Of a stretch of DNA of 64,000 bases, positions 9,688 through 50,562 are shown piece after piece (position 1 is the stretch's first letter; each line of letters opens with the position of its first letter). The translations under genes and the position numbers were made by a program. Origin of the DNA: a virus. The notes under the pieces were generated by a model. The model was not told the origin of the DNA. It worked only from the letters and a program-made list of their open reading frames with translations, and ran no database searches. Where the stretch lies: the IMG/VR virus record IMGVR_UViG_3300042146_000099, positions 1-64,000 of that record. The stretch is one strand, 5' to 3'.

Positions 9688-10084
9688 CACCACCCGGAAG
9701 GCGATGCTTACGGTCGCCGCCCACGCGAAGGACGCCGACGACTGCCGCGAGCTGCTGGACATGCTCGGCATCGCCCCGACCGCGCCGAAGCGTCGTGGCC
9801 GCCCGCGTGGTGAGTACGGCCACGGCCACCCGACGAGGTACGCGCAGGGCTGCCGCTGCACCGAGTGCCGGGCTGCGAACGCCGAGCGGCAGCGGGTACA
9901 GCAGCGGCGCCGCATCGGCGATCCCGAGGCGGCCGACCGTGCGGGGCACGGTAACGCGTCGACGTACCAGAACTACGGCTGCCGTTGCCGTCCGTGCACG
10001 GAGGCGAACACCGCGAAGAGTCTCGCGTACAAGGCGCGGCGTCGTGAGCGTGCGGCGCTTGCCGAGACGGGCGGTGGGTCGTGA
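9680..10084 (+). CDS. Putative Zn-finger protein with two HG-x3-Y-x2/3-GCRC-x2-C repeats
   Basis: HGHPTRYAQGCRCTEC and HGNASTYQNYGCRCRPC. Confidence 0.7.
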   Translation: MADTTRKAMLTVAAHAKDADDCRELLDMLGIAPTAPKRRGRPRGEYGHGHPTRYAQGCRCTECRAANAERQRVQQRRRIGDPEAADRAGHGNASTYQNYGCRCRPCTEANTAKSLAYKARRRERAALAETGGGS

Positions 10085-10329
10085 CCGGCCTGTCTCTCGG
10101 CGAGGTCTTCTTCCTCGCTCTCGGCATCGGCGGGTTCGTCCGCTTCGGCTGGTGCCTGGTCTACCTGATCGGCGACGAAGAGCCGATGCCCGCATGGCTG
10201 GACAAGGCCCTGGACGTCGTTGTCGGGCTTGTGCTCGCTGCGGTCGCTGCTGTCAGGCGCCAGGCCATGACGGCTGCCGCGCTCCTCGCTCTCCTCCTCC
10301 CTGCCAGCCCGGAAGGGGCCACGTCATGA
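10081..10329 (+). CDS. Small membrane protein
   Basis: Hydrophobic segments; coupled start and stop. Confidence 0.6.
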   Translation: MTGLSLGEVFFLALGIGGFVRFGWCLVYLIGDEEPMPAWLDKALDVVVGLVLAAVAAVRRQAMTAAALLALLLPASPEGATS

Positions 10330-26852: not shown

Positions 26853-27021
26853 CCGTGCGGCGGCCCGTGCGCCCACAACAGGCCCGAGAAAGCCGCTGTG
26901 CGCCCGTCTCCCGGCCTCAACCCCGCTCGCGCGGCTCTCGCGACGCCGGAACCCCTCCAGCGGCCCGCAGGCACCCGCACAGCGCTTCGCCCCCACAAAC
27001 CCGACGCAACCGGAGCAACAC

Positions 27022-27396
27022 GTGACAAACCCGTACCGCGTCCTCGTCACCGGCAGCAGGACCTGGAACGACCAAGCCGTCATCTGGCAGGCCCTCGCCA
27101 ACGTCGTCCGCCAACTCCCCCCAGACCGCGAGGTCGTCCTCGTCCACGGCGCATGCCCGCGCGGCGCCGACGAGATGGCCCACCAGTGGATGCGCGGCTA
27201 CGGCGGCGTCATCGAAGCCCACCCAGCGAACTGGGTGAAGCACGGCAAGGCCGCCGGGTTCCGCCGCAACGCCGAGATGGTCGCCCTCGGCGCGGACATC
27301 TGCTTGGCGTTCATCCGCAACAACTCCCGTGGCGCCTCCCACACCGCCGCCCTCGCCGAGAAGGCAGGCATCCCGACCAGGAGGTACACCGCGTGA
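27022..27396 (+). CDS. SLOG-family (YspA/DUF2493-like) protein
   Basis: RVLVTGSRTW, LVHGACPRGAD, HPANW..HGKAAGFRRNAEMV. Confidence 0.85.
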   Translation: MTNPYRVLVTGSRTWNDQAVIWQALANVVRQLPPDREVVLVHGACPRGADEMAHQWMRGYGGVIEAHPANWVKHGKAAGFRRNAEMVALGADICLAFIRNNSRGASHTAALAEKAGIPTRRYTA

Positions 27397-27551
27397 ACCC
27401 CGCCGACGCCGAGCAACAGCGCCGCAACGCCATCCACTCCGTCTCCGGCCGCGTCATCGACTGCTGCGAGACCGGCGAAACCGACTGCCCTTGCATCTGC
27501 CACGACGACACGGACGACCAGTGCCCGGCACCCGAGGAGCAGCAGCCGTGA
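27393..27551 (+). CDS. Small Cys-rich protein
   Basis: GTGA overlap; CC...CPCICH. Confidence 0.5.
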   Translation: MNPADAEQQRRNAIHSVSGRVIDCCETGETDCPCICHDDTDDQCPAPEEQQP

Positions 27552-27790
27552 CCGCCCCCGACGTCCTCACCTCCGCCGCCAAGGAACTCCTCGCCGACCC
27601 CGACAGCCGCGAGATCGTCCTCCCCTCCGGCGCGATCATCTCCGCCACCCTCGCCACGCCCCTCGCCGTCTGGCTGACCGCAGAAGCCCGCCGCATCTCC
27701 TGCGCGTCCTCGACAGCCGGTCAAGAGATCGTCGGCCGCAACGCCCTCGCGGTGGCGCGCGCCATCCTCGGCACCCAGGAGACCGCATGA
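27548..27790 (+). CDS. Hypothetical protein
   Basis: Coupled ORF; ALAVARAILG. Confidence 0.6.
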   Translation: MTAPDVLTSAAKELLADPDSREIVLPSGAIISATLATPLAVWLTAEARRISCASSTAGQEIVGRNALAVARAILGTQETA

Positions 27791-28290
27791 GCATCTACGC
27801 GTCGATCGAAGGCGTCGGCGGCGACAGCGACCCCGAACACCTCGGCAAGCCCTGGATCTACCGCGGCAGCCACCTCACCCCCGCCGAAGACGACCCCCGC
27901 AACGGCGTGATCGGCCTCGCCCTCATCCCCTCCCACATCACCGCCGACGCCCGCGACGACTCCCCAGCCGACGGCCCACCATGGCCATGGCTACGCCTGC
28001 GCCTCACCGTCGACGGCGACGACCCGACCGTCCTCATCAACCCCGCACAAGCACGGTTCCTCGCCGAGCAGCTCGCTACCTGGGCCGACCGCGCAGACCC
28101 GCCCGAGTTCCCCGGCGGACAGCACTGGTGGATCCACACCCGGCTCCCCTCCGGCAGCAGCGTCTGCGGGCCCGGCAGCAGCGACCGCGACGCCGTCGTT
28201 ACCCGGCTGGCCGAGCTCCGGGCCGCGAACCCGAACGCCACCTACCGGCTCGTCTGCGACACCAGCCGCAGCACCGTGGAGGACGCGTGA
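27787..28290 (+). CDS. Hypothetical protein
   Basis: ATGA overlap; PWIYRGSH motif. Confidence 0.65.
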   Translation: MSIYASIEGVGGDSDPEHLGKPWIYRGSHLTPAEDDPRNGVIGLALIPSHITADARDDSPADGPPWPWLRLRLTVDGDDPTVLINPAQARFLAEQLATWADRADPPEFPGGQHWWIHTRLPSGSSVCGPGSSDRDAVVTRLAELRAANPNATYRLVCDTSRSTVEDA

Positions 28291-28751
28291 CCGACCAGCC
28301 CAAGGAACACGACGTCGTGCGCGCCGCACGCCTCGACAGCCTCAGCGTCCTTCTCACCCGCATCGCCAACGGCCGAACGCTCACCCCGGAAGAGGCCCGG
28401 CTCCTGGTGAAGCACGTGGGCGTCGAGGTCAGCGAGTCCACGACCGCGCGAGCCGTCGGCGCCGAACTCGCCGCGCTCACCCAGCGTCTCGACATCGGCG
28501 ACGCACAAGCCTGGTGCAAGTACTGCCGCCGCGCCTGGGACAGCCCCGCACACCGCTGCGAGTCGGACGCTGAGCAGCGGGTGCAGCGGATCGCTGAACT
28601 CCGTGATCGGTGGCTGATGGCCGGGCCGCCGCCCCTCGGCACGCCCCTCGCACGCTGGTGGGACAAGCGGCTCGCTGAACTGAACGCCGCCCTCGACGAG
28701 CCCGCACCCGCCACGCCGACAGCGACCCAAGCGACCGACCAACCGAAGTGA
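28287..28751 (+). CDS. Hypothetical protein
   Basis: GTGA overlap; GPPPLGT...RWWDKRLAEL. Confidence 0.65.
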   Translation: MTDQPKEHDVVRAARLDSLSVLLTRIANGRTLTPEEARLLVKHVGVEVSESTTARAVGAELAALTQRLDIGDAQAWCKYCRRAWDSPAHRCESDAEQRVQRIAELRDRWLMAGPPPLGTPLARWWDKRLAELNAALDEPAPATPTATQATDQPK

Positions 28752-28775
28752 ACACGCCTGCCGCAAACAGCGAAA

Positions 28776-28800
28776 CGCCCGCCCTCACCCAGGACGGGCG
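28776..28800. terminator. Hairpin between convergent genes
   Basis: CGCCCGCCCT-N5-AGGACGGGCG. Confidence 0.5.
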
Positions 28801-28816
28801 CTTCCACACACCGCGC

Positions 28817-28993
28817 TCAGACCGACGACTGGAACGCCGCCACCGACACCCTGCCCGGACCCTTCGGCTCCTGCCCGCGGGGCGCGATCCGCGTCAACGC
28901 CGGCGAACCACCACCGCGGGCGAGACGGGCGAGCGGCACCCGCTCCGGACCGTCAGGCTCGGGCTGGTCGCCGGGGAGGAGGATCGTGTTCAT
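28817..28993 (-). CDS. FxSxx-COOH-type RiPP precursor-like peptide (58 aa)
   Basis: Hand translation MNTILLPGDQPEPDGPERVPLARLARGGGSPALTRIAPRGQEPKGPGRVSVAAFQSSV*; ends in AAFQSSV and has a VPLxxL...ALxRI leader pattern. Confidence 0.78.
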   Translation of the reverse strand: MNTILLPGDQPEPDGPERVPLARLARGGGSPALTRIAPRGQEPKGPGRVSVAAFQSSV

Positions 28994-29438
28994 CGGCTAC
29001 TCGCTCTCGTCGTGCTGGTGCTGTGGGGACCGTACCGGGCGCGCGGGGTCTGGCATGCTGGTTGCGGCAACGCTCGTCTGCTCGCGGGAAACCCGGGCCC
29101 CCGAGAATCCGTCGGGTGACAGCCGGGCGGGCCGTCTGCCGGGACAAGGCCGGAACCAGGGAACTGGATCCCTCCCGCACTGCGGTTCCCCGTCGGGGAG
29201 GTCAGCCGCGCGGGATGCGGCCCCCGGAGACAGCACACGGCCCGCCACCCTGACTGGGGTAGCGGGCCGTTGCCACGGGGCGCCCTCCGCTGCGGACCAC
29301 CGACCGTACGCGCACGGTGTGGGTGAGGGAAGACCTCGAACGGGTGAACGGCACCCACTGTCGTACCCGCCCCGTACCCTGATCGTGCTGGCCCGTCGCA
29401 AGCTGCTGCCGACCGGTCAGTGGTGCTGAACAACAAGA

Positions 29439-29469
29439 GCGCCCCGCCTCACTGACCGAGGCGGGGCGC
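29439..29469 (-). terminator. Hairpin terminator after the DUF6221-like gene
   Basis: GCGCCCCGCCTC-N7-GAGGCGGGGCGC followed on the minus strand by TCTTGTTGTT. Confidence 0.65.
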
Positions 29470-29502
29470 AGCTGTTCGGGGCTCAACCCCACGACGTGTC
29501 GC

Positions 29503-29922
29503 TCATGGCCAGTCCTCCTTATATCCGGGCCTGTCAGCGTATGGGAGGGCCATCTCGCGGACGGTCTGTTTCGCGAAGTGCACAAGACGCGGGATGCCGG
29601 ACAGCATCTCCTCCTCGCAGCGGATGAGCATGCGCCTCTTGGCGTCGATCTCGCGCAGGACACGCGCCGGATCATGACGGGCGATGAATGCCGCCTGCCG
29701 CGCGCCGAGCGGGTTCAAATCATGACGCGTCGGCAGCCCGCTCTCCGGGTCGGTGTCGTACTCCAGCACGGGATTGCCCATGTCGTCGTAGATCGCGCCA
29801 TCACCCCGTTCGTGAGCGATCAGTTCCCAGCAGTCCCCGCCGTCCTGCCGTGCCGCACGCGCGGCCGCTTCTTCGGCGTCGAGCTGGGTGCTGAGCCAGC
29901 GCACAAGATCCTCCACGATCAC
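29503..29922 (-). CDS. DUF6221-like actinophage protein
   Basis: AFIARHDPARVLREIDAKRR...ALPYADRPGY.EDW. Confidence 0.8.
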   Translation of the reverse strand: MIVEDLVRWLSTQLDAEEAAARAARQDGGDCWELIAHERGDGAIYDDMGNPVLEYDTDPESGLPTRHDLNPLGARQAAFIARHDPARVLREIDAKRRMLIRCEEEMLSGIPRLVHFAKQTVREMALPYADRPGYKEDWP

Positions 29923-30440
29923 CCCTCCGACTCCTGCTGCGCCTTCTTCTTCGCCCGGTCAGCCTTGGCCCGTTGCGCCGTACTCACGCCCTTGCTGATC
30001 TGCTGGGCGCGCTCCGGCGTGACACCGTAGGGCGTGATCACGACCAACGGCTTCCTCTGCCTAGTCACAACGATGGGCATGCCTGACTCTGCCACCTGAT
30101 CGATGGTCCCTCCCGCCCCCAGCGTGAAGCGCGAGATCGGCAGCACCTCGCCGGGAGGCGCGCCGTGTACAGCGTGCACCCAGCGGACGGACGCCACGTT
30201 GTAGCGGGGGTGCTCCTCGTGGATCACACGCTGCTCCTCGGCCCACGCCGCCTCGCGGTCCGGAAGCCACCGGATCTCCTTGGTCGAAACTTCCGGCCAC
30301 CATTCCTTGTCGGCCTTGTGATCCGCGAAGCGCGTCTTGATGTCGTAGGTGATACCCACATACAGCAGCGTCTCGTCAGCGTCATAAAGCCGGTATACGG
30401 CTGTCTCGCGGGGGCCGCTGGATCGGTTCGGTACAGTCAA
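29919..30440 (-). CDS. GIY-YIG nuclease-like domain fused to a Phd/YefM-like domain (copy 1)
   Basis: TAVYRLYD...LLYVGIT...RF..H...E...I..EHPRYN; C-terminal IDQVAESGMPIVVTRQRKPLVVITP. Confidence 0.78.
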   Translation of the reverse strand: MTVPNRSSGPRETAVYRLYDADETLLYVGITYDIKTRFADHKADKEWWPEVSTKEIRWLPDREAAWAEEQRVIHEEHPRYNVASVRWVHAVHGAPPGEVLPISRFTLGAGGTIDQVAESGMPIVVTRQRKPLVVITPYGVTPERAQQISKGVSTAQRAKADRAKKKAQQESEG

Positions 30441-30509
30441 GGCAGTGCCTTCCTTGCTTGGTTCGGCGCTTCACAGCCCGAGTGGCCTGGACCGCCGCTC
30501 GGGCTTCTC

Positions 30510-30812
30510 TCATTCCTCAGCAGGCTTCTTCCGGGGCTTCGTGCCCCACGCGCTGCCGTGGCCCCGCTCGATGTTCTGGACGACTCCGAGAGGCAGCTTC
30601 AGCCGGGCGGCGATCTTCCGATACGAGATCTCCTGCGCGCGCATCAGCTCGATCGCCTGCCGCTGGAACTCGCGCAACTCGGGCGCCCGCTCCTTGTAGC
30701 TGGCCAACACCTCGCTACTCACCACGGCGCGCTCGATCGGGTCCTCGATCTCGTCGATCTCTCTCAGAGCGTCGATCACCTTGCGCGCCTCCTCGGTGAC
30801 GTCGTCGATCAT
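30510..30812 (-). CDS. HTH regulator divergent from the transfer operon
   Basis: ISYRKIAARLKLPLGVVQNIERG. Confidence 0.75.
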   Translation of the reverse strand: MIDDVTEEARKVIDALREIDEIEDPIERAVVSSEVLASYKERAPELREFQRQAIELMRAQEISYRKIAARLKLPLGVVQNIERGHGSAWGTKPRKKPAEE

Positions 30813-30849
30813 TCCCGTCCTCCCAATGGGGCGGGCCACTTGCCTCAGT

Positions 30850-30865
30850 GTATGCCATGGCATAC
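30850..30865. promoter_or_regulatory. Perfect 16-bp palindrome GTATGCCATGGCATAC (candidate operator)
   Basis: Lies in the divergent intergenic region. Confidence 0.6.
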
Positions 30866-30984
30866 GCTCGGATCGAGGGGCCAGCCCAAGGTTCCTCAGC
30901 ACCAACAGGAATGCCCCGGACAGGAGTTCGCACCTCCTGCCGGGGCCAGCCATCCCCCTGCCGTGAACAGGAAGGACAGCCACC

Positions 30985-31185
30985 GTGGATCGTAACGGCC
31001 AGCCGCAAGCCGGGCCCAGCCCCCGCGCCATCGCCATCCGCAACGCCGCCGACGCGGCCAACGCCTACCAGGCCAGCCCGGACACGTACACGCTGCACCG
31101 CATGCAGTCCGCCGTACAGACCGCGCAAAACCTCGGCGCCACCCTCCGCGACATCCGCGCCGCACGCCCGGCGGTGACCTCGTGA
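30985..31185 (+). CDS. Small hypothetical protein
   Basis: AAGGA RBS; AQNLGATLRDIRAA resembles the C-terminus of 31544-31735. Confidence 0.6.
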   Translation: MDRNGQPQAGPSPRAIAIRNAADAANAYQASPDTYTLHRMQSAVQTAQNLGATLRDIRAARPAVTS

Positions 31186-31933: not shown

Positions 31934-32347
31934 ATGACCGACACCATCGAAGCCATCCGCTACACCGCCGATGTCGTCGTCACCACCACCGACGGCCACG
32001 TCCTCCTCATCGAACGCGGCTGGGACCCCCACAAGGGCGCGTGGGCGCTGCCCGGCGGCCACGTCGACCCCGGCGAGACGTCCCGCACGGCCGCCGCTCG
32101 CGAGCTGGCCGAAGAGGCCGGCGTGCACGCGGCACCCACCGAACTCGTCCAGGTCGGTGTGTTCGACCAGCCCGGCCGTGACCCGCGCGGCCGGTACGTC
32201 ACCGTCGCCTACCAGCTGACCGTCATCCCCGGAACGATCACCGAGCCGGGTGACGACGCGGTGCGCGCCGAATGGTGGCCGCTGAACGCCCTTCCCCGGC
32301 TGGCGTTCGACCACGCCGACATCCTCGCCGCCGCCCTCCAGAACTGA
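31934..32347 (+). CDS. Nudix hydrolase (as found in AICE/pSAM2-type transfer regions)
   Basis: Nudix box GGHVDPGETSRTAAARELAEEAGV; RDPRGR; LAFDH. Confidence 0.93.
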   Translation: MTDTIEAIRYTADVVVTTTDGHVLLIERGWDPHKGAWALPGGHVDPGETSRTAAARELAEEAGVHAAPTELVQVGVFDQPGRDPRGRYVTVAYQLTVIPGTITEPGDDAVRAEWWPLNALPRLAFDHADILAAALQN

Positions 32348-36707: not shown

Positions 36708-37011
36708 TGGCGCTCCGTTCCGGGCAGGTGCGTGGGTCTTCCCCGTCGCACGCCTCGCACCAGTGCTGGATCACCGCGAGCGGCGCCTGACACAGGCAGT
36801 CCTCGCCGGGGCACTCCTCGATCTCCGCGCGGCAGCACTGGTGCACGAGGTGCCACGCCAGCTCCGGCCAGTCCGGCGGGTACTGGGTATCGCAGTCACC
36901 GCCGACGCCTTGGCAGCGCGGCCACGAGTCCTCCTCGCGCGGCGGCAGGTTGTCCCACGGCAGCGGCGACAGCCATGAGGGGCGTTCGGGGGTCTCGCTG
37001 GTCGTGGTCAT
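36694..37011 (-). CDS. Cys-rich hypothetical protein
   Basis: ATGA overlap; many Cys. Confidence 0.55.
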   Translation of the reverse strand: MTTTSETPERPSWLSPLPWDNLPPREEDSWPRCQGVGGDCDTQYPPDWPELAWHLVHQCCRAEIEECPGEDCLCQAPLAVIQHWCEACDGEDPRTCPERSASVQG

Positions 37012-37496
37012 GCGGTCGGCTCCTCGTTCGTGCCGTACACCTCGTCGTGCGTTAGCAGACCCATGGCGAGTGCCTCAACCGCTGCGTCGTAGTTCTCGGG
37101 CGACATAACGACTCCGGCAACCTTGCCTCGCCGCGTGATCGCAACGTCCCTGCCGCCGAACTGGGTCGCGTCCAAGAGGTCAGAGATTCGGAGTCGGGCT
37201 TGCGACTGAGTCAGCGCGTCCGGAATGGGGAAGTGTGTGGCGACCAGGCTCGTTCGGGCGCCTGCCGTGTTGTATAGCGGCTCCTCTGCCTGGACGGCCG
37301 AGCGTTCTGCCTTCTCTGCCGCTTCTCGGTCGGGGTGCCATTCCACCGTGCGACGCCGGACCAGCGACCACCACGGCTTGTCGGAGGCGTGCTGCGTCCA
37401 CCGGATCTCTGGCTGCGTACTGATGCCGACATAGAGCAGCGCTCCGCCGTCGTCGTAGAGGCGGTACAGGGCGGTGCGCTGACTTGAGGTCGTCAC
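37008..37496 (-). CDS. GIY-YIG nuclease-like domain fused to a Phd/YefM-like domain (copy 2)
   Basis: TALYRLYD...LLYVGIS...RW..H...E..AV..EEPLYN; SQARLRISDLLD...VAITRRGKVAGVVMSPENYD. Confidence 0.8.
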   Translation of the reverse strand: MTTSSQRTALYRLYDDGGALLYVGISTQPEIRWTQHASDKPWWSLVRRRTVEWHPDREAAEKAERSAVQAEEPLYNTAGARTSLVATHFPIPDALTQSQARLRISDLLDATQFGGRDVAITRRGKVAGVVMSPENYDAAVEALAMGLLTHDEVYGTNEEPTA

Positions 37497-40385: not shown

Positions 40386-42062
40386 TCAGGAAACTCCGTA
40401 CCACTGCGACGCCCAGCCCGTGTTGATGATGCTCGTCGACTGCTGCGTCAAGTCCAGGCTGGCCGGGAGCGACGTCTGACCGGTGAGCATGTTGGAGTAA
40501 CGCAAGCTCGGCGCGGACAGGTTGGCGTTCACGCTGATGCCCGCGCCGGACGCCTTGAAGTGCAAAACGTTGGTGGTCCACGTTCCGTTGAGGAGCATGG
40601 CGATGAAGTACTCGCCGGGCGCGGCAGTGAACGGGGCGGTCAGGCTGATGCCTTTGGCGACCGCGCCGGTCATCAGGTCGGCGGAGATGTCCGCCGTCAC
40701 CCCGACGCGGGTGCCAGCCGCGTTGTACACGCCGAGGTAGCAGTTGCTGAGGCTGGCGCCGGTGTCGATACCGGACAGGCCGAACCAGACCTGCGACCAG
40801 GTGATGCTCTTACGGATCTGGATCTTCGTCAGGGTGATTCGGCCACCGACGCCGCCGCTCGACTGCGCGGTGACGTGCCCGGCAATGTCCGGGTCATACG
40901 TCCACGCCAGCAGACCCTGATCGGAGGGGTAACTCGCCGGATAGTCGAGATTGATGCCCGACGCTGACGGCCCGGCCCCGGAGACCTTCACAACCTCCAG
41001 CGTCGACCCGGCCTTCAGGCTCACCGCGGTGGCGTTGCTGGACGACTGCGCCCATTGCAGCCGCAGCGTCCCTGCCGTGGCACCAGTGGCGACAAAGCCG
41101 TGCGGCAGCGCTATCAGTCCGGCCAGCGTCGCCGACGACGCCATCACACCCACATCCACCTCGGCGCCGAACCGACGGCCAGCCATCTTCAACTGGGCTG
41201 AGCCGTCGGGGGTGGTGGTGCCGAGGGTGCCGGCGACCGGGGACCATCCGCCCGTCGCTCCGGACGGTGCAGTGAAGCTGATTTTGGCGTCGGCTGCTTC
41301 GGGCCCGTCGAACAGGAGCATGCCGGTGAACCGGTAGACGCTGTTGGCTTCGAGGCTGGCGAAGAGATGGGTGTCATTGCTGACGGCGGTAGTGGACGTG
41401 CGGGTTTCGTCGGTTGCTTTGACTGCCGTCTGTGTGAGCGCGGACAGCGCGGCGATCTGTGTGTCGGTGTAGGCGCGGTCGCCGTGCGGGTCGGATGCTG
41501 CTGTGTGGGTGGGGACGGCGTCTCCGGCGGAGACGGTGCCCGTGCTGGTGCCGACATTGAGGATGGCGGCGCCGCCGAGGCCAAGGTTCGTGCGCGCGGT
41601 TGCGGTGGAGCCAAGGTCGGAGAGGTTGTTTGCGGCCTCCAATAGGCCGGTGATGACGCCGGTGTCGCCGTTGACGGAGAGCACGGCTGGCGAGGAGACG
41701 GTGCCGCTGCTGGACTCCACGGGCGCCAACGAAGGCAGGGCCACGGTGGGTGTGGCGGCGGGGAGGCTGATGTTGTAGGCGCGGCCGGGTGCGTTCGTGA
41801 ACTCCTCGTCGACGCGGTAGGTCCAGCCGGTGGGGCTGAAGTCGTCGGCGTCGGTGGCGAGGAGTGTTTCCGTGAAGTAGCCGGATGCGCTGAGGGTGGC
41901 GTTGACGGTACCGAGGGCGATGACGCCGTGGGTGGCTGAGGTGACGCGGGACACGGACGGCGTGAACGTGATGGTGCCGGTGTAGGGGTCGCCGTCGAGG
42001 GTGCGGTATCCGGCTGCTCCGGCGGTGACGGTCACCGTTTCTACGCCGTTGGGGAAGGCCAT
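40386..42062 (-). CDS. Tail fibre/minor virion protein (fibre B)
   Basis: AGGAGG RBS at ATG 42062; NNLSDL..TARTNLGLG and H..ASDPHGDRAY fibre motifs; Ser/Thr/Gly-rich; shares a domain with 51598-52671. Confidence 0.8.
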   Translation of the reverse strand: MAFPNGVETVTVTAGAAGYRTLDGDPYTGTITFTPSVSRVTSATHGVIALGTVNATLSASGYFTETLLATDADDFSPTGWTYRVDEEFTNAPGRAYNISLPAATPTVALPSLAPVESSSGTVSSPAVLSVNGDTGVITGLLEAANNLSDLGSTATARTNLGLGGAAILNVGTSTGTVSAGDAVPTHTAASDPHGDRAYTDTQIAALSALTQTAVKATDETRTSTTAVSNDTHLFASLEANSVYRFTGMLLFDGPEAADAKISFTAPSGATGGWSPVAGTLGTTTPDGSAQLKMAGRRFGAEVDVGVMASSATLAGLIALPHGFVATGATAGTLRLQWAQSSSNATAVSLKAGSTLEVVKVSGAGPSASGINLDYPASYPSDQGLLAWTYDPDIAGHVTAQSSGGVGGRITLTKIQIRKSITWSQVWFGLSGIDTGASLSNCYLGVYNAAGTRVGVTADISADLMTGAVAKGISLTAPFTAAPGEYFIAMLLNGTWTTNVLHFKASGAGISVNANLSAPSLRYSNMLTGQTSLPASLDLTQQSTSIINTGWASQWYGVS

Positions 42063-42090
42063 GGGTTCCTCCTGCCGCCGCCTCTCCTTG

Positions 42091-42133
42091 GAATCGTAGC
42101 TTGCGCTTGCCAAATTCCTCCGAATCGTAGGAT
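42091..42133. promoter_or_regulatory. GAATCGTAG direct repeats and TAGGAT -10 in the divergent promoter
   Basis: Copies at 42091 and 42122 (31 bp apart); TAGGAT at 42128. Confidence 0.5.
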
Positions 42134-43402: not shown

Positions 43403-43548
43403 ATACCGCCATCGCCATCACCGCGATCATCGCCGCCACGCTCGTCGCCAGCCAGATCATCACCGCTATCCGCGACGTGGCCAAAGCCAAGCACCAGCCC
43501 ACCCGCGAGCAGCACGCGCGCGACAACAGCAAGGAGAACGAGGCATGA
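43399..43548 (+). CDS. Small single-TM protein
   Basis: AGGAGG RBS; hydrophobic N-terminus. Confidence 0.55.
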   Translation: MNTAIAITAIIAATLVASQIITAIRDVAKAKHQPTREQHARDNSKENEA

Positions 43549-44501
43549 AGGTACTGGTCACCGGCGGCAGCGGCTTCATCGCCTCATGGATCCGCCGCGA
43601 ACTCACCACACGCGGCCACCACATCCTCGTCATGGACCACCAGGACCGCCGCCAGCATTTGGCGCCCGGTGAGGAGTTCTTCCTCGGCGACGTCCGCGAC
43701 GCCACCGCCGTCACCGAGGCCGCCGCCCACGTCGACGGCATCATCCACCTTGCCGCCGTCCTCGGCACCCAAGAGACCATCCACAACCCGCGCCCGTCCG
43801 CCGAGACGAACATCCTCGGCTCGCTGAACGTCTTCGAAGCGGCCGCCCAGTACAACCTGCCCACCGTGTACGCCGGGGTGGGCAACCACGCCTTCAGGCT
43901 CGTCGGAACCGGCTGCTACACGATCACCAAGAGCGCGGCCGAAGACCTGGCCCGCATGTACAACCTCTACCGCGACGGCGGCCGGATCACGATCGTCCGC
44001 CCCGTCAACGCCTACGGGCCCGGCCAGTCCATCGCCAAGCCGTATGGCACGAGCAAGGTGCGAAAAGTGATGCCAGCGCTGACCTGCCGCGCCCTCACCG
44101 ACACGCCCATCGAGGTCTACGGGGACGGCACCCAGGTGTCCGACTGCGTCTGGGTGAAGGACGTGGCGACGGCGTTCGTGGCCGCTTTGGAGCACACGGC
44201 AGAGTACGGCCACACCGAGCGGCCAGTGGAAGTCGGGCCCGCCAGCTCCGTGACGGTCAACGACATCGCGAGGATGGTGGCGGAGGAGGCCTCCAAGCAC
44301 ACCGGCCTTGCGCCGGTGGACATCGTGCACTTGCCCATGCGGCCCGGTGAAGTTCCGAACGCTGTGGTCAAGTCGGACGTGTCCACGCTCCAGCAGATCG
44401 GCCTGGACGCTGCCGATTTCTTGCCGCTCGAAGACGGCATTCGCCAGACCGTCGAGTACTACGCCACCGAGTGGTTGCCGGGATGGAGCCCGAGTCGATG
44501 A
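43545..44501 (+). CDS. NAD-dependent NDP-sugar epimerase/dehydratase (extended SDR) 1
   Basis: VTGGSGFIAS, HLAA, YTITK, RPVNAYGPGQ, VYGDGTQ, RPGE. Confidence 0.92.
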   Translation: MKVLVTGGSGFIASWIRRELTTRGHHILVMDHQDRRQHLAPGEEFFLGDVRDATAVTEAAAHVDGIIHLAAVLGTQETIHNPRPSAETNILGSLNVFEAAAQYNLPTVYAGVGNHAFRLVGTGCYTITKSAAEDLARMYNLYRDGGRITIVRPVNAYGPGQSIAKPYGTSKVRKVMPALTCRALTDTPIEVYGDGTQVSDCVWVKDVATAFVAALEHTAEYGHTERPVEVGPASSVTVNDIARMVAEEASKHTGLAPVDIVHLPMRPGEVPNAVVKSDVSTLQQIGLDAADFLPLEDGIRQTVEYYATEWLPGWSPSR

Positions 44502-44974
44502 CGACGGAAGTGGCGACGAGGCGCTGCCCCGACTGCAAGGAAACAAAGCCGCTCGATGAGTTCTACTACAACCCGAAGAGCACGCTCAAGACTCGAACCT
44601 CTTCCCACTGCAAGGTGTGTGCGCGACGGCGGGTCCGGGAGCACAACAAGCGCAACGCTGAAGCGATTAGCGAACGGCGTAAAGCCGCACGGCGGACGCC
44701 AGAAGGCCAACGCAAGAGCCGGGACCGAGACCTGCGGCGGCACTACGGCATTGGTCTCGTCGATCTGGAGCGGATGATCCGTGCGCAGGGAGGACGCTGC
44801 GCGATCTGCGAGGACGAGTTCGAGTCTGACAAGCACACGCACGTCGACCACTGCCACTTCAGGGGCACTGTCCGGGGCATCCTCTGCTCGTCGTGCAACC
44901 TCATGCTCGGGCACGCCAAGGACGACCAGCGGCGGCTTCTCGCTGCCGCTCAGTACCTGGAGCTGCCGTCATGA
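44498..44974 (+). CDS. Endonuclease VII-type HNH endonuclease
   Basis: RHYGI...QGGRCAIC...VDHCH...VRGILC..CN..LG. Confidence 0.9.
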   Translation: MTTEVATRRCPDCKETKPLDEFYYNPKSTLKTRTSSHCKVCARRRVREHNKRNAEAISERRKAARRTPEGQRKSRDRDLRRHYGIGLVDLERMIRAQGGRCAICEDEFESDKHTHVDHCHFRGTVRGILCSSCNLMLGHAKDDQRRLLAAAQYLELPS

Positions 44975-45984
44975 TGAAGGTCCACTTCTGGTCCGCCGAC
45001 ATGGCGGGTTCGGCATGGTACAGAGCCGTGATGCCCGCGATGGGCCTCTCCTGGCTCGGCCACACCGCCACCCACCACCCCCGCCTGCCCCGGAACTGGG
45101 AGTCGTACGACACGATCGTCGGCTGCCGCGTCGCCCAGACCAGCCCGTCGAAGATGTGGTGGCACCTCAAGCAGGAGGGGAAGCGGCTCGTCCTCGACCT
45201 TGACGACGACTACTTCCACATCGACCCGTCCAACGCTGCCGCGGTGCGCGTGTGGGATCGGGACATGCTCGGCCGGCTGGCCCACAACATGGGCGTCGCG
45301 GATCTCGTGACGTGCTGCTCGGAGCCTCTCGCGGCCGTGCTGCGGGACTACGCGGAGAACGTTGTGGTCATTCCGAACGGTCTGCCCGCGCAGTATCTGG
45401 GCAAGCCACGCGACTACCGGGCTGACGACCGGCCGTTGTATGTGGGGTGGGCGGGGACAGCGTCGACGGTGGCCGAACTGCCGGAGGCGGTGCGCGCCCT
45501 GAACCGGATCTCGCAGTACCCGCGCCCCGGTGGGGTGATGGTGCGGCTGGTGGGGATCGATGCGAAGCAGGCGATGGGCCTTGGGTTGAAGGGCCGTCGG
45601 ATTGGTGCGCTCGGGTGGGTGGAGCGGGTGGAGCACTATCTGCAAGCCGTTGAGGAGTTCGACGTGTGGGTGGCTCCGTATCGGGATACGGCGTTCAACC
45701 GGGCGAAGTTCCCGACGAAGTGGCTGGAGTCCAGCGTTCTCGGCATTCCGTTGATCGCGTCGGATACGGAGGCGTACCGCGCGGTGATTCGGCATGGGGA
45801 GAACGGGTTCCTTGTGCGGTACGAGCACGAGTGGGGCCGCTATCTGAAGCAGCTAGTCGACGATCCCGACCTTCGTCAGCGGGTCGGTATGACGGCGCGG
45901 GGTGAGGCGTCGGGGAGCATCATGCAGGCGTTGCATCACCGGTGGGAGGACGCCGTACGCGTACCCGTGGAGGTGAGCACGTGA
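44971..45984 (+). CDS. Glycosyltransferase, GT-B fold (GT4-like)
   Basis: WYR...P, DLDDDYF, VIPNGL, GWAGT, FNRAK..TKWLE...GIPLIASD..AY...IRHGENGFL. Confidence 0.9.
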   Translation: MMKVHFWSADMAGSAWYRAVMPAMGLSWLGHTATHHPRLPRNWESYDTIVGCRVAQTSPSKMWWHLKQEGKRLVLDLDDDYFHIDPSNAAAVRVWDRDMLGRLAHNMGVADLVTCCSEPLAAVLRDYAENVVVIPNGLPAQYLGKPRDYRADDRPLYVGWAGTASTVAELPEAVRALNRISQYPRPGGVMVRLVGIDAKQAMGLGLKGRRIGALGWVERVEHYLQAVEEFDVWVAPYRDTAFNRAKFPTKWLESSVLGIPLIASDTEAYRAVIRHGENGFLVRYEHEWGRYLKQLVDDPDLRQRVGMTARGEASGSIMQALHHRWEDAVRVPVEVST

Positions 45985-46556
45985 CCTCCCCCGACTGGAC
46001 GATGGCCGTGTCCCTGCACGCGGCTGACGGGCCGGGAATGGCCCGCTTCACCTGTGTCCCCCGTGACAGTGATCTGCTCGTGACTGGCGTAGTGGAAGCC
46101 ACCGACCACGGCATCGTCATCACATCCATGGAGTTCTCCACGCAGGCCCCTTCCGGCATCACGGCGACCACGAACCGTTCCTTCCGCCTCGGCGAGCTGC
46201 TCGCCTACCTCCGCACCGCGCGGGAACTGGACGAAACACGGCGTGCCCTCGGTCTGCACCAGAGCGCCGCCGAGCCAACCGCCGTGTCCCCTGAAACGAC
46301 CTTGCGACCCCGACGGGGTGGGCGCCCTGCCGTGGGCGACGAGACCCTCCGCGCGCTGGCGGTCGCGTACTTGGAGGAGTGCGCGCACGGCAAGCCAGCG
46401 GGATCTGTGGCGAGAGTCGCCAGTCGCTTCGGCCGTCCAGAAGAGACCATCCGCACGTGGCTCGCCCGTGCCCGGAAAGAGGGCTGGCTGACCGCTGGAG
46501 TCAGGGGCAGGCGAGGAGCCGAAGCAGGGCCGCGCCTGCGAGAGGAGAAGGCGTGA
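45981..46556 (+). CDS. DUF6214-like protein with C-terminal HTH (paralog 1)
   Basis: LRALAVAYL...VARVASRFG...TIRTWLARARKEGWL. Confidence 0.7.
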   Translation: MTSPDWTMAVSLHAADGPGMARFTCVPRDSDLLVTGVVEATDHGIVITSMEFSTQAPSGITATTNRSFRLGELLAYLRTARELDETRRALGLHQSAAEPTAVSPETTLRPRRGGRPAVGDETLRALAVAYLEECAHGKPAGSVARVASRFGRPEETIRTWLARARKEGWLTAGVRGRRGAEAGPRLREEKA

Positions 46557-46810
46557 CCGCCGAACTGCCCTGCTGCCAGGGTCTGCCAGAGCACACGTAC
46601 GGGACTGAGTGCCTGCACCACCGCGAGGAGTCGTTCGACATCAGCACCGAGGACGGGCGAAAGGCTCTCGCCCGGAAGATGGCGGACGACTGGCGGGAGA
46701 ACGGCGGGGTGCTGCCCCCTGGCGTCACCTACATCCGGCTGGAGCCCGGCGAGCACATCCTCAGCGGGGAAGACATCCGCCGTCTCCTCGAAGGTGAGGA
46801 GGACCAGTGA
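46553..46810 (+). CDS. Hypothetical protein
   Basis: GTGA overlap. Confidence 0.55.
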   Translation: MTAELPCCQGLPEHTYGTECLHHREESFDISTEDGRKALARKMADDWRENGGVLPPGVTYIRLEPGEHILSGEDIRRLLEGEEDQ

Positions 46811-47301
46811 TCCACATCCCCATCACAGACAGTGCACTGCCCGGCGTCGAAGCCACCTTCTCCTACGCCCTCCGAGGGGACACCCTCGCTCTGATCGAAG
46901 TACGCATAGCGGCAGCAGGCACCGTATCCGTGCCCGCCATTCAGGAAATGCCGCTCAGCCGCTGGGAAAAGCGGGCTTGGGGTACTGCGATGAGGCGGCT
47001 CCTAGCAGCTGAGGAGACACCGGAGCGCCGCGTTCTCGCACGGCATCCGCAACTGGCGAACGTCACGCACGGCAACGCCCTCCGGCGCTGGAAGTCCCTG
47101 GTGCACCTCGCCAGCGTTGCAGCCGAGTACGCAGATGCGATGGAAGCGGGCGCCAGCAACCCAGCCCAGACCGTTGGGCACCGGCACAACGTTTCAGCGG
47201 CCACCGTACGTGGCTGGCTGCACCGTGCACGCAGGGAGGGTCTCGCGCCAACAAGCACACACCCCAACGCGGTGGGCAGCAGGAAGGACGGCAACGCGTG
47301 A
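46807..47301 (+). CDS. DUF6214-like protein with C-terminal HTH (paralog 2)
   Basis: LASVAAEY...PAQTVG...VSAATVRGWLHRARREGL. Confidence 0.7.
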   Translation: MIHIPITDSALPGVEATFSYALRGDTLALIEVRIAAAGTVSVPAIQEMPLSRWEKRAWGTAMRRLLAAEETPERRVLARHPQLANVTHGNALRRWKSLVHLASVAAEYADAMEAGASNPAQTVGHRHNVSAATVRGWLHRARREGLAPTSTHPNAVGSRKDGNA

Positions 47302-47507
47302 CGGGCCCGGAGCATTACCGCGAAGGCGAGGAGCGGCTACGCGCCAGCGACTACCAGCGCGCGCAAGCAGGCGACGAAGGCGACCTCACCACCGCCATCC
47401 ACGAAGCCGCCATGGCCCAAGCCCACTTCACAGCCGCGCTCGTCGCGCTCCTCGCCTACGACCGGCAACCCGACAGCGTCGCCTGGCAGAAGGCGGTCGG
47501 CTGGTGA
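47298..47507 (+). CDS. Conserved small actinophage protein
   Basis: MTGPEHYREGE.RL...AQAHFTAAL. Confidence 0.7.
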   Translation: MTGPEHYREGEERLRASDYQRAQAGDEGDLTTAIHEAAMAQAHFTAALVALLAYDRQPDSVAWQKAVGW

Positions 47508-47815
47508 GTAACAAGATGACCTGCCTGGGTTGCCAGTCGCATACGTCAGCGGTCCTCACCGCCTACGAAGACGGCGAGCCGTGCCCCTACTGCAAGCTGT
47601 CCGCCGCCGCGACCTTGGAGATCCAGACCATCCGCAGGGCGCGCGCCGACGATGAACTGAAGGCGAAGCTGGAGCAGGCGATCAAGGAGCGCGACGAGGC
47701 GCAGCGGGAACGCGACTGGGCGAAGCAGCGTCTCGCCCACGTCGAGAGCGAACTCACCGACCTTGTGGAACGGATCCGTCGACCGCTCAGCGATGAACCG
47801 GGGAGCGTCTGGTGA
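47504..47815 (+). CDS. Zn ribbon plus coiled-coil protein
   Basis: CLGC...CPYC then heptads. Confidence 0.6.
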   Translation: MSNKMTCLGCQSHTSAVLTAYEDGEPCPYCKLSAAATLEIQTIRRARADDELKAKLEQAIKERDEAQRERDWAKQRLAHVESELTDLVERIRRPLSDEPGSVW

Positions 47816-48681
47816 ACATTCTCGTCACTGGTGCGGCCGGATTCATCGGCAGCCACCTCGTCCGCGCCCTGGAAGCGCGCGGGCACACGATCACCGGCAT
47901 GGACAAGCGGAACGGACTGCCCACCACGGACCTTTCCCAGCTCCGGCGCACCGTGGACACCGCCGAGCCCGACGTGATCGCGCACCTCGGCGCCTCCTGC
48001 TCCACCTCGGTGAGCCTCGCCGATCCGGCCAGTGACTTCACGGACAACGTGGTGGGCACCTTCAACATCGCGGAAGGCGCACACCGGGCGGGCAACATCC
48101 CCGTCGTCTACACCAGCAGCGTCAAGGTCCACCCCGGCGCTGATGGGCTCACCGCCCCCCTCGGCCTGTCCAAAGCCGTCGGCGAGGACTACCTCCGCCT
48201 CTACCGCGAGCTGTACGGGCTGCCGTCCGTCATCCTCCGGCCCTCCACCGTCTACGGGCCCGGCCAGAACGGCAGCGCCGAAGCAGGCTGGGTGACGTGG
48301 TTCCTGCGCGCCTTCTGCGACCGCAAGCCCATCACCATCCACGGCGACGGCAGCCAGTCCCGGGACATCCTCTACATCGACGACTTCACGAGTCTCCTTG
48401 TCGACATAGTCGAGCACCACGCCGACTACGCGACCGCGACCGAGCCGTACGACGTCGGCGGCGGCCCCGACAACGAACTCGAACTCCTGCAACTCGTGAA
48501 CGCCCTCGAAATCGAGACCGGCACCCGGCACCCCGTCACCCACGACAAGCGCCTCCCCGGCGACCTCCAGCGCGTCGTCACCGACAACGCGGCCATCACC
48601 GCCGTACGCGGCTGGACACCCACCACCCACTGGTTCGACGGCATCCGGGAGACGCTCAACTGGATCGGAGAACAGTGGTGA
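47812..48681 (+). CDS. NAD-dependent NDP-sugar epimerase/dehydratase-like protein 2 (catalytic Tyr replaced by Leu)
   Basis: VTGAAGFIGS, YTSS, PLGLSK at the YxxxK position, RPSTVYGPGQ, GDGSQSRD. Confidence 0.88.
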   Translation: MNILVTGAAGFIGSHLVRALEARGHTITGMDKRNGLPTTDLSQLRRTVDTAEPDVIAHLGASCSTSVSLADPASDFTDNVVGTFNIAEGAHRAGNIPVVYTSSVKVHPGADGLTAPLGLSKAVGEDYLRLYRELYGLPSVILRPSTVYGPGQNGSAEAGWVTWFLRAFCDRKPITIHGDGSQSRDILYIDDFTSLLVDIVEHHADYATATEPYDVGGGPDNELELLQLVNALEIETGTRHPVTHDKRLPGDLQRVVTDNAAITAVRGWTPTTHWFDGIRETLNWIGEQW

Positions 48682-49436
48682 AAGTCGGCGTCATCATCCC
48701 CGCCCGCAACGCAGGCGAGTGGATCGAGGAGATGCTCATCTCGATCCAATCCCAGACACATTCCGCGCGGGCATACATCGCCGAAGACTGCGGCAGCGAT
48801 GGCACCTACGCATGGCTACGTCGGCGCCCTGACCTGTGGGCGGGACTGCGGCGGAACCGGAAACGGCTCGGCTGGGCCGGCAGTCTCAACGCCGCCGCGA
48901 AGCTTGCGCTCAACGATGGCTGTGACGCCGTGTTCACCGCGTCCGCCGACGACAAGCTGCATCCCGAGTGCATCGCCCGCTGCGTGTCCGCCCTCAACGC
49001 CGACGGCGGCCGAGACTTCGTCATCCCGCACGCGAAGCAGTTCGGTGAAGCCGACCACGTCCAAGCCAGCCTCCCGGACGCCGACCTCGACGACCTTGTG
49101 CGCTGGCCGCCGCTGATCGACAAGGGCCTGTTCCGGCGTGAGACGTGGGAGCGAGTGGGCGGCTACAGCGCGAAGGCGACGCCGTCGGGCACGTACGGGA
49201 CGGCGGAGGACTGGGACTTCTGGATCCGCGTCTGGAAGGCCGGGCTCACCCGCTACGCGGTCGTCGAGCAGCCGCTGTATCTCGTGCGCGTCCATCCCGG
49301 CCAACTGTCCGACACTCGCGGCGAGTATCACGCGGCGACCGTGGATCTGCTTCGGCGGCTGCATCCGGATCTGCCGTGGCCGGACGACGCGCACGTCTGG
49401 CCACCACGACACCGCACCACAAGGAGGACGCCTTGA
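48678..49436 (+). CDS. Glycosyltransferase family 2
   Basis: VIIPARNA, EDCGSDGT, SADD, VGGY...EDWDFWIR. Confidence 0.92.
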   Translation: MKVGVIIPARNAGEWIEEMLISIQSQTHSARAYIAEDCGSDGTYAWLRRRPDLWAGLRRNRKRLGWAGSLNAAAKLALNDGCDAVFTASADDKLHPECIARCVSALNADGGRDFVIPHAKQFGEADHVQASLPDADLDDLVRWPPLIDKGLFRRETWERVGGYSAKATPSGTYGTAEDWDFWIRVWKAGLTRYAVVEQPLYLVRVHPGQLSDTRGEYHAATVDLLRRLHPDLPWPDDAHVWPPRHRTTRRTP

Positions 49437-49666
49437 GCGTCAACATGCACGCCATCCTCGTCGGCCTCCTGTCCGTCAGCCACACGCGCGAACAGGCTGA
49501 CCACGCGGCGCGAACGGTCCTGGACCAGCACGCTCACGAACTCGCCAAGCAGATCCGCGCGGCATCCATCAGCTGGGGGCGGGTCCCGGACATGGACGCC
49601 GACGACGCTGCCGACCTCATCGACCCGAAGGCGCAGCGCGCCAGCACCGAAGGAGACACCCCGTGA
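49433..49666 (+). CDS. Small phage protein
   Basis: AAGGAGG RBS; HAHELAKQIR...AADLIDP. Confidence 0.6.
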   Translation: MSVNMHAILVGLLSVSHTREQADHAARTVLDQHAHELAKQIRAASISWGRVPDMDADDAADLIDPKAQRASTEGDTP

Positions 49667-50562
49667 TCGACGGCCACAAGGTGATCGCCTGGACGCCTTA
49701 CGGACGGGTCAGGACGTACAGCATCCTGATCAAGTACCTCCAGCGAGACGTCGAACGCGGCCTCGTCGACGAGGTCTGGGCCTATATGAACACCGACCCC
49801 GTCGGCCAGGAAGACGACATCGCCTACGCCCACCAGCTGGCCGAACAGCACGACTGGTTCCACCTCAAGCACCGCCCCGAAGGTATCGACCTCGGCAACC
49901 TCCCCAAGCAGCGGTACACCGGCCTCGCCTACCGGGAGATGGTCGACCCGCACGCGGTCTATCTGAGATTCGACGACGATGTGGTGTACATCCACGAGGC
50001 GGCCATCGAGAACCTCGTCCGCGCCCGCCTTCAGATGCCCGCGCCCACCGCGGTGTTCCCCGTCATCTTCAACAACGCGCTGTGCTCTTACTTCCTCCAG
50101 ATCTGCCGCAAGGTCCCGATGGAGTGGGGCGAGGTCAAGCCCTACTGCATGGACCCAATCGGCTGGGCATCCGGGCCGTTCGCGGTGAAGCTCCACAGCC
50201 TCCTCCTCGACCACATCGAGGCTGGCACGGTCGAGGATCTGTACCTGTACCAGGACTTCCCGATCCAGAACCCCAACGACGGCAGCAACGGCATGCAGTT
50301 CTCCGTGTCCTGCTTTGCCAGCCTCGGCAGCATGTACGCCAACCTCCCCGACGGTCCCGGTGTCCTCGTCCCCGACGAGGAGGAGAGCTGGACCACCGTC
50401 CACCGCCCCCTCGCCATCGGCGTGCCCAACATCCTCCGCGGGGACGCGATCGTCAGCCATTACTCGTTCTTCACCCAGGGGCCGTTCCTTAATGCGGCCA
50501 GAATTCTGGACCGGTACCGGGAAGTCGCTGAGAAGCTGACACTGCCCGAGGCGTCGTCGTGA
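49663..50562 (+). CDS. Putative GT-A-fold glycosyltransferase of uncertain family
   Basis: TPYGR, YLRFDDDVVYI (DxD), DEE and HYSFFTQ motifs; operon context. Confidence 0.65.
   Translation: MIDGHKVIAWTPYGRVRTYSILIKYLQRDVERGLVDEVWAYMNTDPVGQEDDIAYAHQLAEQHDWFHLKHRPEGIDLGNLPKQRYTGLAYREMVDPHAVYLRFDDDVVYIHEAAIENLVRARLQMPAPTAVFPVIFNNALCSYFLQICRKVPMEWGEVKPYCMDPIGWASGPFAVKLHSLLLDHIEAGTVEDLYLYQDFPIQNPNDGSNGMQFSVSCFASLGSMYANLPDGPGVLVPDEEESWTTVHRPLAIGVPNILRGDAIVSHYSFFTQGPFLNAARILDRYREVAEKLTLPEASS

Follow-up and report, generated by a model that had tools for sequence, protein, structure and literature searches.

A phage-borne orphan FxSxx-COOH precursor peptide gene and its possible bearing on the host Fxs module

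Results

The DNA analysed here, henceforth referred to as the window, is the first 64 kb of a linear 73,469-bp virus record with 68.6% GC (IMG/VR IMGVR_UViG_3300042146_000099; CheckV completeness 84%). Its minus strand carries a 58-residue open reading frame (ORF) that is assigned below to the FxSxx-COOH, or FxsA-type, precursors of RiPPs, peptides synthesized by ribosomes and modified after translation. The ORF has an ATG start and a TGA stop and, as described in a first-pass annotation made from the letters of the window, its product ends in VSVAAFQSSV. The stop codon follows immediately, so that F-x-S-x-x stands directly before it (AAFQSSV-TGA; the frame ends in GPGRVSVAAFQSSV). The gene sits in a 752-bp gap, where a plus-strand operon whose last gene ends at 28751 converges with a minus-strand block of three genes running from 30812 to 29503 (one of unknown function, a GIY-YIG/Phd-like gene and a DUF6221 gene). 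The first-pass description of the peptide gene as antisense to the early operon holds only in part: the gene shares the orientation of the minus-strand block, with a strong terminator between. Coordinates are collected in Table 1.

Membership of the FxSxx-COOH family, proposed at first pass, was borne out by hidden Markov models (HMMs). TIGR04268 scored 35.4 bits in a peptide search (E 9e-9; curated cut-off 28) and 34.7 bits in a six-frame search, with matches in none of 14 control genomes. A custom HMM was built exclusively from 24 chromosomal peptides, each encoded directly 5′ of fxsB; it gave the ORF 70.3 bits (E 8e-21), while the runner-up among the 1,105 ORFs of the record reached 11.5 bits. 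In a large protein collection 37 homologues of 31–102 aa were found (E <= 0.01, 59–100% identity). Residues R18, L21, L24, A25, R35, R48, V49, V51, A52, A53, F54 and S56 are invariant across these homologues, and the leader blocks and the C-terminus RVxVAAFQSSV as a whole are invariant or nearly so. Pfam family PF27839 is a precomputed annotation on the homologues; the peptide itself gave no match to PHROGs or to a Pfam copy in which PF27839 is not included.

Taken alone the C-terminal ending is weak evidence: among the 1,102 six-frame ORFs of 30 codons or more in the 73.5-kb record, two finish in FxSxx-stop. An accidental ending on a frame that is no gene would be in keeping with that second ORF, with a neutral codon-usage score and with the 36 ORFs of at least 30 aa that overlap the 3 kb around the gene, GC-rich DNA being rich in spurious frames. 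Such an accident is nevertheless effectively refuted by the custom HMM score, obtained on a model of bona fide precursors, together with the 37 homologues of similar length and their invariant residues, and the odds that we leave it are minimal. Judged by its homologues, the ORF is a real gene for an FxsA-type RiPP precursor. On the opposite strand it is overlapped by an arginine-rich ORF of 123 aa (28748–29119, plus strand), whose GC content at third codon positions (GC3) is 0.88 and whose codon score slightly exceeds that of the peptide frame. This antisense ORF is in all likelihood a shadow of the real gene, and it illustrates how gene callers that rely on composition miss the locus or put it on the wrong strand.

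No match to FxsB (TIGR04269), HExxH (TIGR04267), Radical_SAM (PF04055) or TIR_2 was obtained in the whole 73.5-kb record. The earlier remark that the window has no radical SAM or HExxH gene thus extends to the full record, and its view of the precursor as a phage-borne orphan stands as well. Pfam annotation of the 109 called genes indicates a temperate actinophage: the set comprises a serine integrase, Cro/CI-type helix-turn-helix (HTH) proteins, a Rad52-like recombinase, WhiB, an antirepressor, HNH nucleases, a DNA methylase and an FtsK-like ATPase, and tail genes including a tail tube occur from 52 kb on, with a tape-measure-sized ORF of 1,530 aa. The integrase, Rad52, WhiB, antirepressor and tail tube genes and the 1,530-aa ORF flank the peptide gene on both sides. 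Adjacency to an FxsB maturase, which is not found here, is a trait of the usual genomic context and not of the peptide.

Relatives were located by pattern scans followed by tblastn in virus records, GTDB species genomes and metagenome contigs. Virus records contained L004 and the pair L002/L003, GTDB species genomes 26 loci in 25 Streptomyces genomes, and metagenome contigs six loci. Other phages do carry orphan copies: L004, L031, L032, L034, L036 and L002/L003, together with the prophage L005, have phage neighbours and no Fxs enzyme in the available flanks (L033 and L035 are too short for a context call). The C-terminus, on whose conservation the first-pass annotation had staked its reading, is conserved in the related phages and in the prophage. 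In L004 and L031 the peptide gene converges with a homologue (83–89% identity) of the 167-aa plus-strand gene next to it in the window. L005, the prophage locus, lies on a 24-kb contig of Streptomyces ossamyceticus NRRL B-3822 and has a DUF6221 gene followed by the peptide gene among phage replication genes (DnaB, DnaC-like); L032 shows the same DUF6221-peptide order. L034 (a 49-kb contig) and L036 (93 kb) contain homologues of several window genes. L002 and L003, two records from related samples that are nearly identical to each other (one of 111.6 kb bearing terminal repeats, the other of 48.2 kb), share almost nothing with the window phage and represent a second, unrelated phage type with an orphan copy. 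Both are 100% complete by CheckV, and no FxsB, radical SAM or TIR gene was found anywhere in them. Neither megablast of positions 27000–31000 nor tblastn of the peptide matched any of 50,697 GenBank phage records, and the phage has no known cultured relative.

A tree of 68 peptides (65 alignment columns) places the window peptide in a clade of 36 rows with support 90/92. Its other rows are L005, L031, L032 and 32 of unknown context; the 24 FxsB-adjacent chromosomal rows all fall outside it. The phage/chromosome label requires two changes on the tree, and none of 500 shuffles was as clustered. L002/L003 branch apart from the phage clade (100/99) and have a ribosome-binding-site region like that of the chromosomal copies; their copy may be an independent and more recent capture, a reading that the tree cannot prove. 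Phage and chromosomal clades have GPERV[PS]LxxLA, SPALTR and GPGRVxVAAFQSSV in common. They differ at the N-terminus, which reads M-(T/N)-T-x-H-L-P-G-D-Q-P in the phage clade and M-N-A-S-L-D...A-E-E-P-G-K in chromosomal precursors. Over phage-clade residues 1–14, a stretch absent from chromosomal precursors, 17 sequences agree throughout on T3, L6 and P7 and to at least 90% on D9. This phage-specific N-terminus could be a site for a phage-specific partner or a stability signal.

The core VAAFQSSV shows synonymous third-position changes, and its sole residue change is S to A at the penultimate position in the two most distant loci. Contigs of two other rhizosphere runs (X2 and X3) cover the ORF with 20 differences and two frame-restoring pairs of 1-nt indels. 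These contigs match the ORF (28816–28993) and diverge in the flanks, one joint exchanging 28719–28815 for 245 other letters. The peptide gene is thus common to several related elements with different neighbours. As far as the alignments indicate, the recognition blocks and the core are maintained and the linkers drift, which is the typical pattern of a RiPP precursor.

The signals around the gene point to separate transcription. A strong intrinsic terminator closes the upstream block 445 nt away, and the peptide gene therefore needs a promoter of its own; the same terminator hairpin is found in L032, and a DUF6221 homologue lies upstream of the peptide gene in L005 and L032. The intervening region is conserved over 340–450 nt with L031 (1–350) and L032 (3300–3637), save for ~85 nt inserted in the window, and is non-coding because its indels are not multiples of three. 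Its consensus fold has 92 predicted pairs, 13 of them with compensatory changes (only three sequences). The region could hold a leader or a small RNA; with three sequences no RNA element is claimed. No Rfam family reached threshold on 28000–30000, where the only match was a microRNA far below it, and a tRNA scan of the window found none.

The -10-like hexamer TACGGT flagged at first pass is present upstream of the start codon. A TAnnnT element occurs at -37 to -41 in all seven phage-borne loci with upstream sequence (the window, labelled G000, and L005, L031, L032, L034, L002 and L003), and is absent at that position from 24 chromosomal upstream regions. In L005 the hexamer reads TACCGT. We infer that the gene's own promoter lies at TACGGT. 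A promoter shared with host fxsA was considered and rejected, the 24 chromosomal upstream regions being unrelated.

The hairpin reported just 3′ of the gene was likewise recovered; its 71-nt fold has a free energy of -41.4 kcal/mol (z -4.0), and none of 200 shuffles was as good. It went unlisted in a scan with a consensus terminator rule, for which its T run is too poor. The hairpin probably terminates the peptide gene and may work in both directions, serving the plus-strand operon ending at 28751 as well. GC-rich hairpin-like sequence also follows the stop in related loci, as judged by alignment. A terminator upstream, a hairpin downstream, the conserved TAnnnT and the convergent gap are all observed, and they suggest a moron-like, self-contained transcription unit between phage operons.

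A competing view takes the gene for a passenger, acquired by recombination and kept almost neutrally, or for a source of unmodified peptide acting outside the Fxs system. The ratio of nonsynonymous to synonymous substitution rates (dN/dS) is near 1 in the closest pairs (1.09 for L031 and L032, 0.98 for the window and L032), no partner gene is common to all loci, and the lineage is rare in isolate genomes, the phage type accounting for 1 of 26 genome loci and the neighbouring 167-aa gene being present in 1 of 401 Streptomyces genomes. A passenger is nonetheless distinctly unlikely. The ORF is open and its C-terminus invariant in the clade at 59–86% identity, two phage lineages carry the gene, constraint is stronger on the conserved blocks than on the remaining residues, the frame is regained through paired indels, and the start context and -10-like element are conserved.

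Table 1 Features at and around the phage peptide gene, and selected genes of virus record L002.
Feature	Sequence	Coordinates	Strand	Details
FxSxx-COOH (FxsA-type) precursor gene	Window	28817..28993	-	58 aa; ATG at 28993, TGA at 28819-28817
GC-rich hairpin	Window	28773-28803	-	13-pair stem, 5-nt loop; starts 14 nt past the stop, followed by TTTCGCTGTTT
TACGGT, -10-like hexamer (TAnnnT)	Window	29029..29034	-	41 nt before the ATG
Non-coding region	Window	28994..29438	-	Spans upstream terminator to peptide start
Intrinsic terminator, strong	Window	29439..29469	-	13 pairs, 11 GC; tail TCTTGTTGTT; ends the DUF6221 block
DUF6221 gene	Window	29503..29922	-	PF19730, 94 bits; upstream co-oriented neighbour of the peptide gene
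167-aa gene of unknown function	Window	27787..28290	+	Convergent neighbour of the peptide gene
YAcAr (cpYpsA-related SLOG) gene	Window	27022-27396	+	~1.4 kb from the peptide gene
NUDIX hydrolase gene	Window	31934-32347	+	~3 kb from the peptide gene
Serine integrase	Window	5168-6571		Pfam
Sugar-modification block	Window	43545-50562	+	Two NAD-dependent epimerase/dehydratases, GT1 and GT2 glycosyltransferases, several unknown genes
Tad2-like and NUDIX genes	L002	3961-4302; 5731-5979; 6242-6811	+; -; -	Pfam
Peptide gene of L002	L002	~9956-10144	+	

The convergent 167-aa gene has homologues next to the peptide gene in L004, L031 and L034 (71–89% identity). It gave no Pfam or PHROG match and no usable Atlas match, and the homologue in the one Streptomyces genome has no peptide in 2.4 kb of surrounding sequence. 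SLOG homologues also lie near the peptide gene in L004 and L036; SLOG and NUDIX families bind or cleave nucleotide-derived signals. Two paralogous genes, 29919–30359 and 37008–37496, lie in separate minus-strand islands. By Pfam the product of the latter has a GIY-YIG N-terminal and a Phd/YefM antitoxin C-terminal part, while that of the former has a weak Phd/YefM match and an N-terminal match to endonuclease PHROGs; homologues of the pair recur near the peptide gene in L034 and L036. Farther away, the sugar-modification block, interrupted by an endonuclease VII gene, may target DNA or the cell envelope. A reversed 575-aa gene (40386–42113, minus strand) has a strong coding signal and no Pfam match.

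At 25 of the 26 Streptomyces genome loci the peptide gene is followed within 50–300 nt by a gene for FxsBH (~800–880 aa), the exception being the prophage L005. The L015 maturase (S. scabiei) matches FxsB TIGR04269 at 615 bits and aKG-HExxH TIGR04267 at 179 bits and is thus an FxsBH fusion, in which a radical SAM/SPASM cyclophane synthase is joined to an HExxH domain. FxsC, with a TIR_2 domain, and FxsT, with ParA-like AAA, TIR_2 and NB-ARC domains and TPR repeats, follow FxsBH at 22 loci. Three FxsBH loci lack an FxsC/FxsT match; two of these contigs end too early, and L027 has the flank and no match. All 25 Streptomyces genomes with peptide loci encode one to six FxsB paralogues, and in an even sample of 81 Streptomyces genomes 54 have at least one FxsB. 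S. ossamyceticus has three FxsB, at least four full-length FxsT and a canonical peptide-FxsBH locus of its own (L009). On sequence grounds, the phage peptide is derived from one specific host precursor type, the one wired to this TIR/STAND module.

The module FxsBH-FxsC(TIR)-FxsT(ParA-TIR-NB-ARC-TPR), missed at first pass, is a predicted anti-phage system. In PMC7159879, actinobacterial FxSxx peptide-processing systems are predicted to be coupled to conflict systems with a TIR-AP-ATPase-TPR effector, and the processed peptide is proposed to alert uninfected cells. A bioRxiv preprint of October 2026 (10.64898/2026.10.19.760177) describes FxsC as an active TIR and FxsT as a ParA with an inactive TIR, treats the pair as a predicted and functionally uncharacterised 'TIR-ParA apoptosis system', and suggests the FxsAB peptide as an antiviral or a diffusible alarm. 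In the present work a complex prediction for the TPR part of FxsT (L015 residues 740–1335) with the phage peptide, run without controls, scored 0.00, which is evidence neither way. In the phage L002 the sole two Tad2-like genes lie, along with a NUDIX gene, 4–6 kb from the peptide gene, and a MazE/MazF-like pair lies on its other side at 2–4.5 kb. Tad2 is an anti-Thoeris sponge of TIR-made signals.

Discussion

We propose that the phage peptide is an orphan precursor with its own transcription that relies on host FxsBH for maturation in trans and serves the phage in manipulating the Fxs module, and we give this proposal a probability of roughly 0.45. The peptide gene would be transcribed from its own promoter. 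Modification would be possible only by host FxsBH, since the phage has no maturase, and the host enzyme would be expected to accept the phage peptide because GPERV(P/S)LxxLA, SPALTR and the last 14 residues are common to it and the host substrate. Maturation would be expected to yield the C-terminal Phe-x-Ser cyclophane peptide that the host itself makes, but under phage instead of host control. The gain to the phage would come from controlling the Fxs module; because the host peptide type adjoins FxsC (TIR) and FxsT, a predicted abortive-infection system, manipulation of that module is the most likely use of the phage copy. A prophage might in this way pre-arm the module in lysogens or signal to kin, the phage might silence the module by supplying a ligand otherwise depleted by host shut-off, or its peptide might swamp the enzyme.

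Of the first-pass alternatives, in which the host system would be borrowed, mimicked or jammed, the first two are favoured over a jam by the match of the core RVxVAAFQSSV and of the leader blocks to those of host precursors. In a competitive jam the phage peptide would hold FxsBH through its leader with slow or no release, starving the host precursor and blocking the host signal. Conserved leader blocks would suit this, as would the independent promoter suggested by TAnnnT and the phage-specific N-terminus and linker, whose conservation in the clade (T3, L6 and P7 invariant) could tune binding. A pure inhibitor would have no use for the crosslink residues, yet neither F54 nor S56 varies among all 37 homologues, and the phage clade keeps AAFQSSV. 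With those residues and the entire core preserved, a genuine mimic is likelier than a dead-end inhibitor, and we regard the jam as improbable.

A role outside defence would be lysogenic conversion, in which an extra precursor copy benefits the host in signalling, development or competition; through the copy's own promoter the lysogen would make more Fxs peptide or change when it is made. In favour, the phage is temperate, with an integrase, HTH repressor-like genes and an antirepressor, one copy lies in an isolate's prophage (L005), the core is identical to that of the host, and prophages are known to carry RiPP genes, such as that for sublancin on SPbeta (10.1101/2020.10.01.322628). Known prophage RiPP cargo, however, brings its own enzymes, and here only the substrate is carried. 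The host locus is built on TIR and STAND proteins, and the neighbours of the L002 copy are anti-TIR genes, which points to conflict and not to housekeeping. To our knowledge, no function is known for any Fxs peptide, a further count against a benefit of this kind. Lysogenic conversion is on balance somewhat unlikely.

A more specific form of the proposed manipulation is one that we consider unlikely: the cyclophane peptide made from host FxsA would be an 'all is well' off-ligand of a suicide module made up of FxsT and the TIR NADase FxsC. Host shut-off would deplete the peptide and the module would fire, unless the phage resupplied the ligand through long-lived FxsBH. Peptide supplied from a phage promoter would then let the phage escape, or let a prophage keep control of the module.

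Several observations weigh against the proposed manipulation of the Fxs module through host maturation. The host is inferred to be Streptomyces and is not directly established, and the immune role of FxsC/FxsT is a prediction from comparative genomics. The N-terminal 12–15 residues differ between phage and host peptides, and if FxsBH reads them the phage peptide may not be a substrate. At 84% completeness, the record leaves ~16% in which a maturase of the window lineage may lie. Genomic context is lacking for 32 of the 36 clade members, and the anti-TIR or nucleotide-signal genes near the peptide gene in L002 and the window, a weak contextual pointer, come from two lineages only. A scan for consensus sigma-70 promoters gave no sites, and the six matching sequencing runs are all rhizosphere DNA, with no RNA among them. 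Constraint on the peptide is modest: pairwise dN/dS within the phage clade spans 0.35–1.09, and the corresponding polymorphism ratio (pN/pS) is 0.45 in the three conserved blocks and 0.90 elsewhere, a contrast that is partly circular because the blocks were chosen by eye. Finally, the codon log-likelihood ratio of the peptide frame is -1.8 (GC3 0.86) versus +3.8 for the antisense frame sharing its third positions, and the ORF was skipped by a simple gene caller.

Since its family is already known, the phage peptide does not amount to a novel molecular type. What is new is that the substrate alone travels on viruses, in its own clade with its own N-terminus and promoter region, that a second phage type also has an orphan copy, and that the source system is a predicted anti-phage module. 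A literature search, most subscription journals lying outside its scope, found no description of a phage-encoded orphan RiPP precursor. The portions of PMC7159879 and 10.64898/2026.10.19.760177 available mention no phage-borne precursor, though Figure 5G and the supplementary neighbourhood tables of the preprint may list copies; the accessible text of PMC11118758, on RiPPs in prokaryote-phage interactions, has nothing on phage-encoded precursors.

Carriage of the substrate alone by a virus, kept intact across a phage-specific clade and in a second, separately branching phage type, is evolutionary evidence of an independent kind that the peptide is of consequence in phage-host conflict. It would add to phage cargo a class of RiPP genes, substrate-only and dependent on a host maturase, that escape cluster-based genome mining. 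FxSxx-COOH peptides and FxsB are widespread in actinobacteria, and the question is testable with one small gene and a natural lysogen, S. ossamyceticus. Were the off-ligand version to hold, the peptide would be the RiPP equivalent of a phage-encoded antitoxin mimic and the first virus-encoded orphan RiPP precursor depending on a host maturase, and would give a first functional handle on Fxs peptides and TIR-ParA systems.

Among known systems the closest is chromosomal Streptomyces FxsA (TIGR04268; beside TIGR04269, TIGR04276/NF040588 and NF040586), which by HMM is of the same family and shares with the phage peptide its length class, the leader blocks GPERVxLxxLA and SPALTR, the core RVxVAAFQSSV and 51–69% identity. 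The phage copy differs in having no maturase, TIR or STAND gene and in having its own upstream region with a -10-like element and a clade-specific N-terminus. Triceptides, made by 3-CyFE radical SAM enzymes, are described in PMC11499958 and PMC12912966 as cyclophanes of three residues that carry their aromatic-to-C-beta link on an aromatic-X-X motif. By sequence the phage FQS fits that motif, and NCBIfam labels FxsB a cyclophane-forming maturase. FxsB has reportedly been characterised biochemically in a 2022 ACS Chemical Biology paper on actinobacterial radical SAM/SPASM maturases.

With sublancin and SPbeta (10.1101/2020.10.01.322628), the window phage has in common that a temperate phage carries a RiPP precursor. 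SPbeta brings modification, immunity and export genes along with it, whereas the window phage brings the precursor only. Maturation in trans, as proposed here, has a counterpart in the prochlorosins, whose precursors are encoded far from the maturase ProcM in one genome; in the present case substrate and enzyme would reside on conflicting replicons, virus versus host. Phages also encode mimics of host immune regulators, and peptide signals of their own, as with the pseudo-ToxI of PhiTE, the Tad2 sponge of Thoeris signals, and the arbitrium peptide AimP with its TPR receptor AimR. The logic would be the same, in that the phage supplies a copy or look-alike of the small molecule that steers a decision system, and the arbitrium/RRNPP peptide receptors have TPR repeats, as does host FxsT. 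Unlike those mimics, the phage FxSxx peptide, known here from its sequence, would rely on host enzymes to mature.

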